From Octopus vulgaris (Eukaryota): a stretch of DNA of 64,000 bases. The notes beneath the pieces were generated by a model that had not been told where the DNA came from, did no database searches, and saw only the letters and a list, made by a program, of their open reading frames with translations. Both the position numbers and the translations under genes were made by a program. Of the stretch, positions 50,383-50,645 are shown piece by piece. Position 1 is the first letter of the stretch, and the number at the start of each line of letters is the position of its first letter. The stretch spans positions 118,730,001 to 118,794,000 of the forward strand of contig OX597822.1 of the NCBI GenBank assembly GCA_951406725.2, given 5' to 3'.

Positions 50383-50494
50383 GCCCAATTGTCGGTCACG
50401 TTGGAGATGGTAATTTCCACGTATTTTTCCCAGTCATGCCAGACGATGCCGAGGAGAAGAAATTGGTTAATAATTTAGCTGAGCGAATTGGCAA
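50383..50494 (+). CDS. LDHD: LDHD exon 11a (mutually exclusive alternative A)
   Basis: [47 protein letters not shown](K) |GTGAGT; 112 nt, phase 1 to 2. Confidence 0.95.
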
Positions 50495-50533
50495 GTGAGT
50501 GCAACTTGTACATTAATTTTTTTCACTTTCTAG

Positions 50534-50645
50534 GTTTTATTCTTGGTCATGTTGGTGATGGAAATTTCCATATTGCGCTTACTTTTGACCCCAATGATCA
50601 AAACGAATTCAGAATGGTAAACGAACTTGCCAATAAAGTAAATAA
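50534..50645 (+). CDS. LDHD: LDHD exon 11b (mutually exclusive alternative B)
   Basis: [50 protein letters not shown](K) |GTGAGT; 112 nt, phase 1 to 2, open frame. Confidence 0.92.

Follow-up and report, generated by a model that had tools for sequence, protein, structure and literature searches.

Two tandem versions of the penultimate exon of octopus LDHD, shared with other molluscs, may encode differently sized substrate pockets

The LDHD gene and its duplicated exon

Judged from its sequence matches, the gene in the window (the whole stretch of 64,000 nucleotides analysed) is that for LDHD, an FAD-dependent mitochondrial D-2-hydroxyacid dehydrogenase, of an Octopus. Its coding sequence occupies 12 exon positions, the last one just past the window end. 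The model containing exon 11a agrees with P0005, a protein labelled Octopus vulgaris, at 468 of 468 residues compared, and the 11a and 11b models each show 3 differences in 468 residues from the O. sinensis RefSeq isoforms X1 and X2, respectively. Both isoforms contain the FAD_binding_4 and FAD-oxidase_C domains, mouse LDHD (8jdc) is matched with a phmmer E value of 3e-195, and constitutive exons 2-9 are all bounded by AG and GT. Coding exon 1 presumably encodes the mitochondrial targeting peptide. The features of the gene are as follows.

14669..14740, + strand: coding exon 1 of LDHD, ATG to first donor; matches the N-terminus of P0005, then GTAAGG
24043-24170, 25822-25963, 32549-32690, 33849-34008, + strand: constitutive exons 2-5, fitted to P0005
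36378-36483, 38327-38420, 40758-40886, 43448-43575, + strand: constitutive exons 6-9, fitted to P0005
43540..43542, + strand: Leu356 codon (TTG) in exon 9, aligned to pocket residue Trp351 of mouse LDHD (8jdc)
46490..46580, + strand: exon 10, upstream constitutive exon, ending in phase 1; loose ends of contigs match its 3' end
50383..50494, + strand: exon 11a, 112 nt, dominant form; spliced from exon 10 and to the last exon in 4/4 runs
50391-50393 and 50424-50426, + strand: exon 11a codons for Val at His-2 and Phe at His+2
50397-50399 and 50418-50420, + strand: exon 11a codons for the metal-ligand His residues
50495..50533, + strand: 39-nt spacer with the 11a donor, predicted branch A at 50516, pyrimidine tract and 11b acceptor
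50534..50645, + strand: exon 11b, 112 nt, alternative form; matches O. sinensis isoform X2 (XP_029641647.1)
50536-50538, 50542-50544 and 50575-50577, + strand: exon 11b codons for Phe at His-4, Leu at His-2 and Ala at His+2
50548-50550 and 50569-50571, + strand: exon 11b His codons
50646..64000 and on past the window, + strand: last intron, 14,187 nt in all; loose ends of contigs match the final exon
L003:1833-2007 (window-equivalent 64833): last coding exon, past the window end; encodes Glu, the third metal ligand, then His

Most of the last intron is filled by an 11.6-kb satellite (52131-63766) made of ~226 copies of a 52-nt unit with 88% matches. Between exons 6 and 7 (36906-37085) there is a decayed copy of the 3' end of exon 7 with its donor, directly preceding an exon 6 acceptor and the first 83 nt of that exon (75/83 identical). 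A donor of the copy's own is not evident, and the piece marks the junction left when exons 6-7 were recently duplicated in tandem.

We noted that exons 11a and 11b are both 112 nt long, enter in phase 1, leave in phase 2, have acceptors with AG after a pyrimidine tract and carry the same donor, AA/GTGAGT; an earlier note on this DNA had described these exons 39 nt apart, and its coordinates are right. The two exons encode the same residue at 17 of 36 whole codons, or 19 of 38 when the junction codons are counted, and agree at 58 of 112 nucleotides. Of these 17 residues, 10 are encoded by different codons in a and b, including four within the motif GHVGDGNFH, where no residue is replaced between the exons, reproducing the 19/38 identity and the synonymous changes within an intact motif that had been reported. 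Exon b has an open frame without stops, and the exon peptide matched G000 at these two places only (2 candidates, 2 scored). The exons are adjacent homologues of like length, with the same phases and valid splice sites, as expected of a tandem duplicated mutually exclusive exon (MXE) pair.

Distribution and origin of the pair in molluscs

Isoform pairs in the databases cover 15 species in three classes, cephalopods, bivalves and gastropods: O. sinensis, Mya arenaria, Dreissena polymorpha, Crassostrea virginica, Saccostrea cucullata, Ostrea edulis, four Mytilus, three Haliotis, Gigantopelta aegis and Littorina saxatilis. In 19 of 20 comparisons the isoforms differ within this exon only, the 20th differing at the N-terminus only, and none of them contains both copies. 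RefSeq X variants are normally based on transcript alignments, and the LDHD isoforms already stand in automated annotation as X1/X2, without comment. For other molluscs we met only a-type records, e.g. from chiton, cuttlefish, Argonauta, O. bimaculoides, scallops and limpets, which may reflect annotation; the predicted proteins searched included no b-type record for squid or cuttlefish, which is not evidence of absence.

When metagenome contigs were searched with a pattern specific to a, four loci matched. Two are intronless at this point and contain a only. The other two, L005 and L006, are genomic and intron-containing, and have the order a then b with phases 1 and 2. Their a/b exon lengths are 112/106 and 112/121 (or 112) nt, all 3n+1, and their spacers are 392 and 571-580 nt.

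The search in other molluscs that the earlier note had called for thus revealed the pair in cephalopods, bivalves and gastropods. Its claim of a mutually exclusive tandem pair under selection is supported by the isoform pairs and the contigs, and the pair is far older than the octopus sequence alone showed. The open frame and splice sites of b are intact across the 15 species and the two contigs, and both His are present in 13/13 b exons. Between close relatives b is identical at 36/36, 32/36, 31/36 and 32/36 residues, compared with 36, 34, 36 and 32 for a. At longer distances the figures are 18/36 and 20/36 for b versus 29/36 and 26/36 for a, and mean identity between species is 0.45 for b versus 0.63 for a, b evolving faster.

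These results largely refute the view, which we regard as very improbable, that b arose recently in Octopus only and is decaying, as the broken copy of exons 6/7 is. Although the gene does contain that recent decayed tandem copy, and contigs of four octopus runs contain no spliced b (see below), the pair is present in bivalves and gastropods, a and b share only 58/112 nt with 10 synonymous differences and no stop, and the identity of Octopus a to the a exon of each of 8 other species (0.53-0.58) exceeds its identity to Octopus b (0.47).

Cephalopods, bivalves and gastropods diverged over 500 million years ago, and the most likely course would be one duplication before their split. The exon tree (36 columns; Ostrea, two Mytilus, H. 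rubra and duplicate haplotypes left out) clusters by exon type, with 5 label changes versus 23.6 when shuffled. It is mostly unresolved, and a clade uniting a and b of cephalopods survives the test (p-AU 0.227), which leaves a single ancient duplication likely, not proven, on these alignments. Independent duplication of the exon in several molluscan lineages, as reported for ACOX1, is an alternative for the origin only, compatible with our preferred explanation of the pair, and we think it unlikely. The p-AU value is in its favour, as is the position of gastropod b exons (Haliotis, Littorina) apart from other b exons in the tree; ACOX1 itself is said to have duplicated three times, according to the accessible text of PMC8373072. 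The small number of label changes, however, argues for common descent of each exon type, as do the same a-then-b order in all three genomic sequences, the greater closeness of Octopus b to b than to a in 5/5 bivalve-type pairs and an aromatic His-4 common to 9/13 b exons.

Tandem copies were also met elsewhere. P0289, with ~53% identity to mollusc LDHD, contains the segment encoded by the penultimate LDHD exon twice in tandem, read through with an implied spacer of ~47 nt; it is possibly a second lineage with a short-spacer pair, and its two copies count on the side of independent origins. P0288 and P0290 are short proteins with b-type exon sequence, the former with a partial second copy of the start of exon b. 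P0131, a model from the rotifer Rotaria, has two LDHD C-terminal parts, one b-like (LILGH..HVIL) and one a-like (PIVGH..HVF, Trp351 kept), and probably represents tandem genes fused by annotation.

Mutual exclusion and use of the two exons

The two exons never occur together in one productive transcript. As the earlier note had said, splicing both shifts the frame and read-through stops at once: with a and b joined a stop lies 87 nt before the last junction, and in the spacer the stop is immediate. If both are skipped, the last exon is read in a shifted frame. Of possible branch sites TTAAT matches best and places the predicted A at 50516, the position proposed previously, which is base 22 of the spacer (18 from the 3' end). 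The steric limit for the distance from donor to branch point is ~50 nt (accessible text of PMC5740500 and PMC7969005), and C. elegans does not excise introns <40 nt (accessible text of PMC4165533). Any branch point inside the 39-nt spacer falls under the ~50-nt limit here, which is not so in L005 and L006; a and b would not be joined, any such branch point being <39 nt from the a donor, and the spacer is too short to be spliced out. Steric exclusion, which the earlier note had proposed, is thus very probable in this genome, yet it does not stand as a conserved mechanism, given the long spacers of L005 and L006. The octopus has two locks, the short spacer and the frame, of which only the frame lock is common to L005 and L006. 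The 3n+1 exon length is conserved; the short spacer is not.

Exons 2/3 of alpha-tropomyosin are a case of steric exclusion of the same short-distance kind. OGDH 4a/4b and C. elegans egl-15 5B/5A and let-2 9/10 likewise have a donor-to-branch distance <~50 nt or an intron <40 nt (accessible text of PMC5740500, PMC7969005 and PMC4165533). In OGDH the constraint is conserved via distant branch points, whereas the short spacer of LDHD is present in this genome and absent from L005 and L006; in the spacers of these two, which have many AG, a distant-branch zone is not evident.

In the mechanism that we propose for the octopus, U1 on the a donor would probably cover the b branch site, so that a would be the default, with b chosen only on repression of a. 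Where spacers are long, transcripts including both exons would be put out of frame by the 3n+1 length and removed by nonsense-mediated decay. The TTAAT at 50467, within exon a, was rejected as a branch point for b, since several AG lie between it and the b acceptor. The fold of 50290-50760 has a z of -2.3, and docker/selector pairing, as for exclusion by RNA structure, is not evident in it. The sequence TGCATG, which we take to be an RBFOX-type motif, occurs at 50316 upstream of a. It lies at the edge of a TG microsatellite, against a background of 24 per 52 kb, has no counterpart upstream of a in L005, and is a lead only. Apparent clusters of YGCY, presumably an MBNL-type word, lie 20-40 nt upstream of exon b in L005 (reverse strand, about 890-930) and L006 (725-766); the Octopus spacer has no YGCY.

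To see which exon is spliced, as the earlier note had suggested, we searched contigs of 4 of the 23 matching runs, from four studies; the runs have no RNA on record, though their contigs are spliced. In each of the 4 runs a single contig joins exon 10, 11a and the last exon (depths 38.6, 7.9, 152 and 87.5). Spliced 11b was found in none of the four, nor was an 11a-to-11b joint, an absence that is weak alone as contigs drop rare variants. Exon 11b was seen once, in run X1, as an unspliced 153-nt piece (50559-50711, depth 4.3) running through its donor, and is therefore pre-mRNA or DNA. Among Logan-derived mollusc-type proteins, 17/17 checked are a-type. Exon a thus dominates, and since contigs lose rare variants the data do not make b silent. 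Of the regulated splice switch claimed earlier, the splicing of a stands in 4/4 runs, and the lack of spliced 11b (0/4) is the main result against the switch.

These observations, along with the faster divergence of b and the several species with only a-type records, fit the idea that b is a rarely used, weakly constrained copy, serving as back-up or for tuning LDHD output through spacer retention or decay of mis-spliced RNA, and yielding little protein. We consider this improbable: the open frame, splice sites and both His are intact in the 15 species and two contigs, the identity of b between close relatives is near that of a, and a regulatory decoy would not need GHVGDGNFH. Gene models and conservation suggest that b is spliced, and we find it highly likely that both exons are used somewhere.

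The active site and the substrate pocket

The earlier note had taken the two His of the motif for metal ligands, and mouse LDHD, in which His398, His405 and Glu442 bind Mn2+ (accessible text of PMC10589216), bears this out. In the same text subsite B, the side-chain pocket, consists of Val101, Trp351, Ser365 and Ile407, the last being His+2; Val396 (His-2) has no mention there among the subsite-B residues named. In D2HGDH, His-2 (Tyr432) and His+2 (Asn443) both bind the substrate tail (accessible text of PMC7801405). That both positions line the pocket, as had been proposed, is therefore right for D2HGDH, and for mouse LDHD in respect of His+2 only. The residues given for them, Val/Phe in 11a and Leu/Ala in 11b, are correct here, and in O. 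sinensis 11b His-2 is Val.

Alignment to 8jdc indicates that the positions of subsite A (Arg347, His398, His405, Glu442, His443) and Ser365 are kept, with both His in both exons. For Val101/Trp351/Ser365/Ile407, subsite B reads Leu/Leu/Ser/Phe in a and Leu/Leu/Ser/Ala in b; it is hydrophobic, and Trp351 is not kept. At the His positions, where counts include close relatives and rows are not independent, we found Phe at His+2 in 22/22 a exons versus Leu (8), Ala (4) or Val (1) in 13 b exons, Pro at His+4 in all a and no b, and at His-4 Pro in all a and Phe or Tyr in 9/13 b; His-2 of b varies (L/V/F/I). Non-mollusc hits, nearly all fish, have Leu/Ile/Val at His+2 in 88/88 and Trp at position 351 in 86/88. 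That position, in constitutive exon 9, is L/V/I in all 18 mollusc rows that could be parsed out of 21, and Leu in the three oysters read by eye. Mouse LDHD, of the same family and fold, has a single version of the segment, with Trp351 and Ile407 (accessible text on PDB 8JDx, PMC10589216), whereas in molluscs position 351 is Leu/Val/Ile and position 407 is Phe or Leu/Ala/Val, depending on the exon used.

A crude sum of five side-chain volumes, from tabulated values rather than coordinates, gives 764 cubic angstrom for mouse, 752 for a and 651-678 for b. The description of the 11a pocket as narrow, given in the earlier note, overlooks the mollusc-wide loss of Trp351 from a constitutive exon. With Trp351 lost, Phe at His+2 plausibly refills its space, so a probably has a repacked pocket of normal size and b an enlarged one. 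The b isoform models as a sound LDHD fold, with a pLDDT of 85.7 (92-94 within the exon) and an rmsd of 1.8 from mouse LDHD.

In our proposal the exon would encode a hairpin that supplies two of the three Mn ligands and also walls the side-chain pocket on one side. Molluscs would have swapped Trp351 for Leu/Val/Ile in exon 9, and the invariant Phe of a would restore a compact pocket, its main job most likely being re-oxidation of D-lactate; several molluscs have D-LDH activity only (accessible text of PMC2570690). With Leu/Ala/Val at His+2, the pocket of b would exceed those of a and mouse LDHD in size and would suit D-2-hydroxyacids that are longer, branched or aromatic. The mouse enzyme itself already oxidises a broad range of D-2-hydroxyacids, having an elastic pocket that takes C3 to C8 and aromatic substrates, and is less efficient on D-2-hydroxyoctanoate and D-phenyllactate, its pocket being at its limit (accessible text of PMC10589216); by analogy these are the substrates on which b should gain. 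Oxidation of opines by isoform b was excluded by reasoning, the C2 hydroxyl being a metal ligand.

By the residues compared, we lean slightly towards the swap changing substrate range. The isoforms may instead both be made and matter, and differ in rate, stability, metal use, product inhibition or electron-acceptor contact, which we rate as rather unlikely. Nineteen of the 36 residues differ, most of them past the catalytic motif in a loop and a surface helix (residues about 420-435) that the swapped exon also includes, and the selected difference may lie there, outside the pocket. The elasticity of the mouse pocket suits that alternative, and the residues that b contributes to the pocket vary between species; faster change of b and varied pocket residues appear to fit relaxed constraint as well as a defined second specificity. 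However, the sharpest fixed contrast between a and b, Phe in 22/22 versus 0/13, falls on a pocket residue and coincides with the mollusc-wide loss of Trp351.

Taken as a whole, the reading that we favour by a little is that the penultimate LDHD exon is a tandem duplicate of probably one origin, used one copy per transcript through steric or frame exclusion and giving two differently sized pockets. More tentatively, it is possible that since the Cambrian split of the molluscan classes one LDHD gene has been two enzymes by regulated exon swap: a repacked D-lactate form (Trp351>Leu, Ile407>Phe) and a larger-pocket form oxidising bulky or aromatic D-2-hydroxyacids in particular tissues or hypoxia.

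ACOX1 isoforms are known to differ in acyl chain-length preference, and the ACSL gate exons, too, tune a metabolic enzyme by swapping a homologous exon by the active site. ACOX1 resembles the LDHD pair in being an FAD enzyme with homologous mutually exclusive exons and cofactor-binding residues kept (accessible text of PMC9741552), its tandem exons also being duplicated in molluscs (accessible text of PMC8373072). It is unlike LDHD in fold and gene, and the LDHD exon carries two catalytic metal ligands. KHK-A/C and PKM1/2 are further metabolic enzymes tuned by a swapped homologous exon beside the active site (accessible text of PMC9741552). They and ACSL are vertebrate cases with measured kinetics, whereas the mollusc pair is known from sequence. 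In human D2HGDH and bacterial GlcD, of the same subfamily as LDHD, subsite B, including His-2 and His+2, sets specificity, as far as the accessible sources go. There the differences lie between separate genes, here within one gene, and the LDHD pair has Val/Phe (a) and Leu/Ala (b) instead of the polar subsite B of D2HGDH (Tyr432/Asn443).

Homologous exon swap in enzymes is thus already known (ACOX1, KHK, PKM, OGDH), and the LDHD pair is undescribed as far as searched: in agreement with the earlier note, which knew of no MXE switch in LDHD, literature searches, covering mainly open-access papers, found no description, and the main texts of three human MXE or tandem-exon surveys do not name LDHD. 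The LDHD-like gene of C. elegans has no mention in the accessible main text of PMC4165533. Human tandem-exon swaps tend to spare ligand-binding residues (accessible text of PMC9741552); unlike them, the LDHD swap exchanges a hairpin that bears two catalytic metal ligands together with one wall of the pocket. For the LDHD/D2HGDH/GlcD subfamily, the pair offers two natural proteins, otherwise identical, in which to test what determines substrate range. It also offers a natural change at Trp351, a residue whose mutation to Cys is linked to disease in LDHD deficiency (accessible text of PMC10589216).

Two variants of the motif region were observed. Three Haliotis b exons (P0216, P0279, P0283) have the motif altered to SHAGDGNFH, with Ala at His+2 like Octopus b. 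One contig of run X1 differs at 50422 (T>C), within the exon a codon for His+1; if real, as an allele or by editing, this would change Val to Ala.
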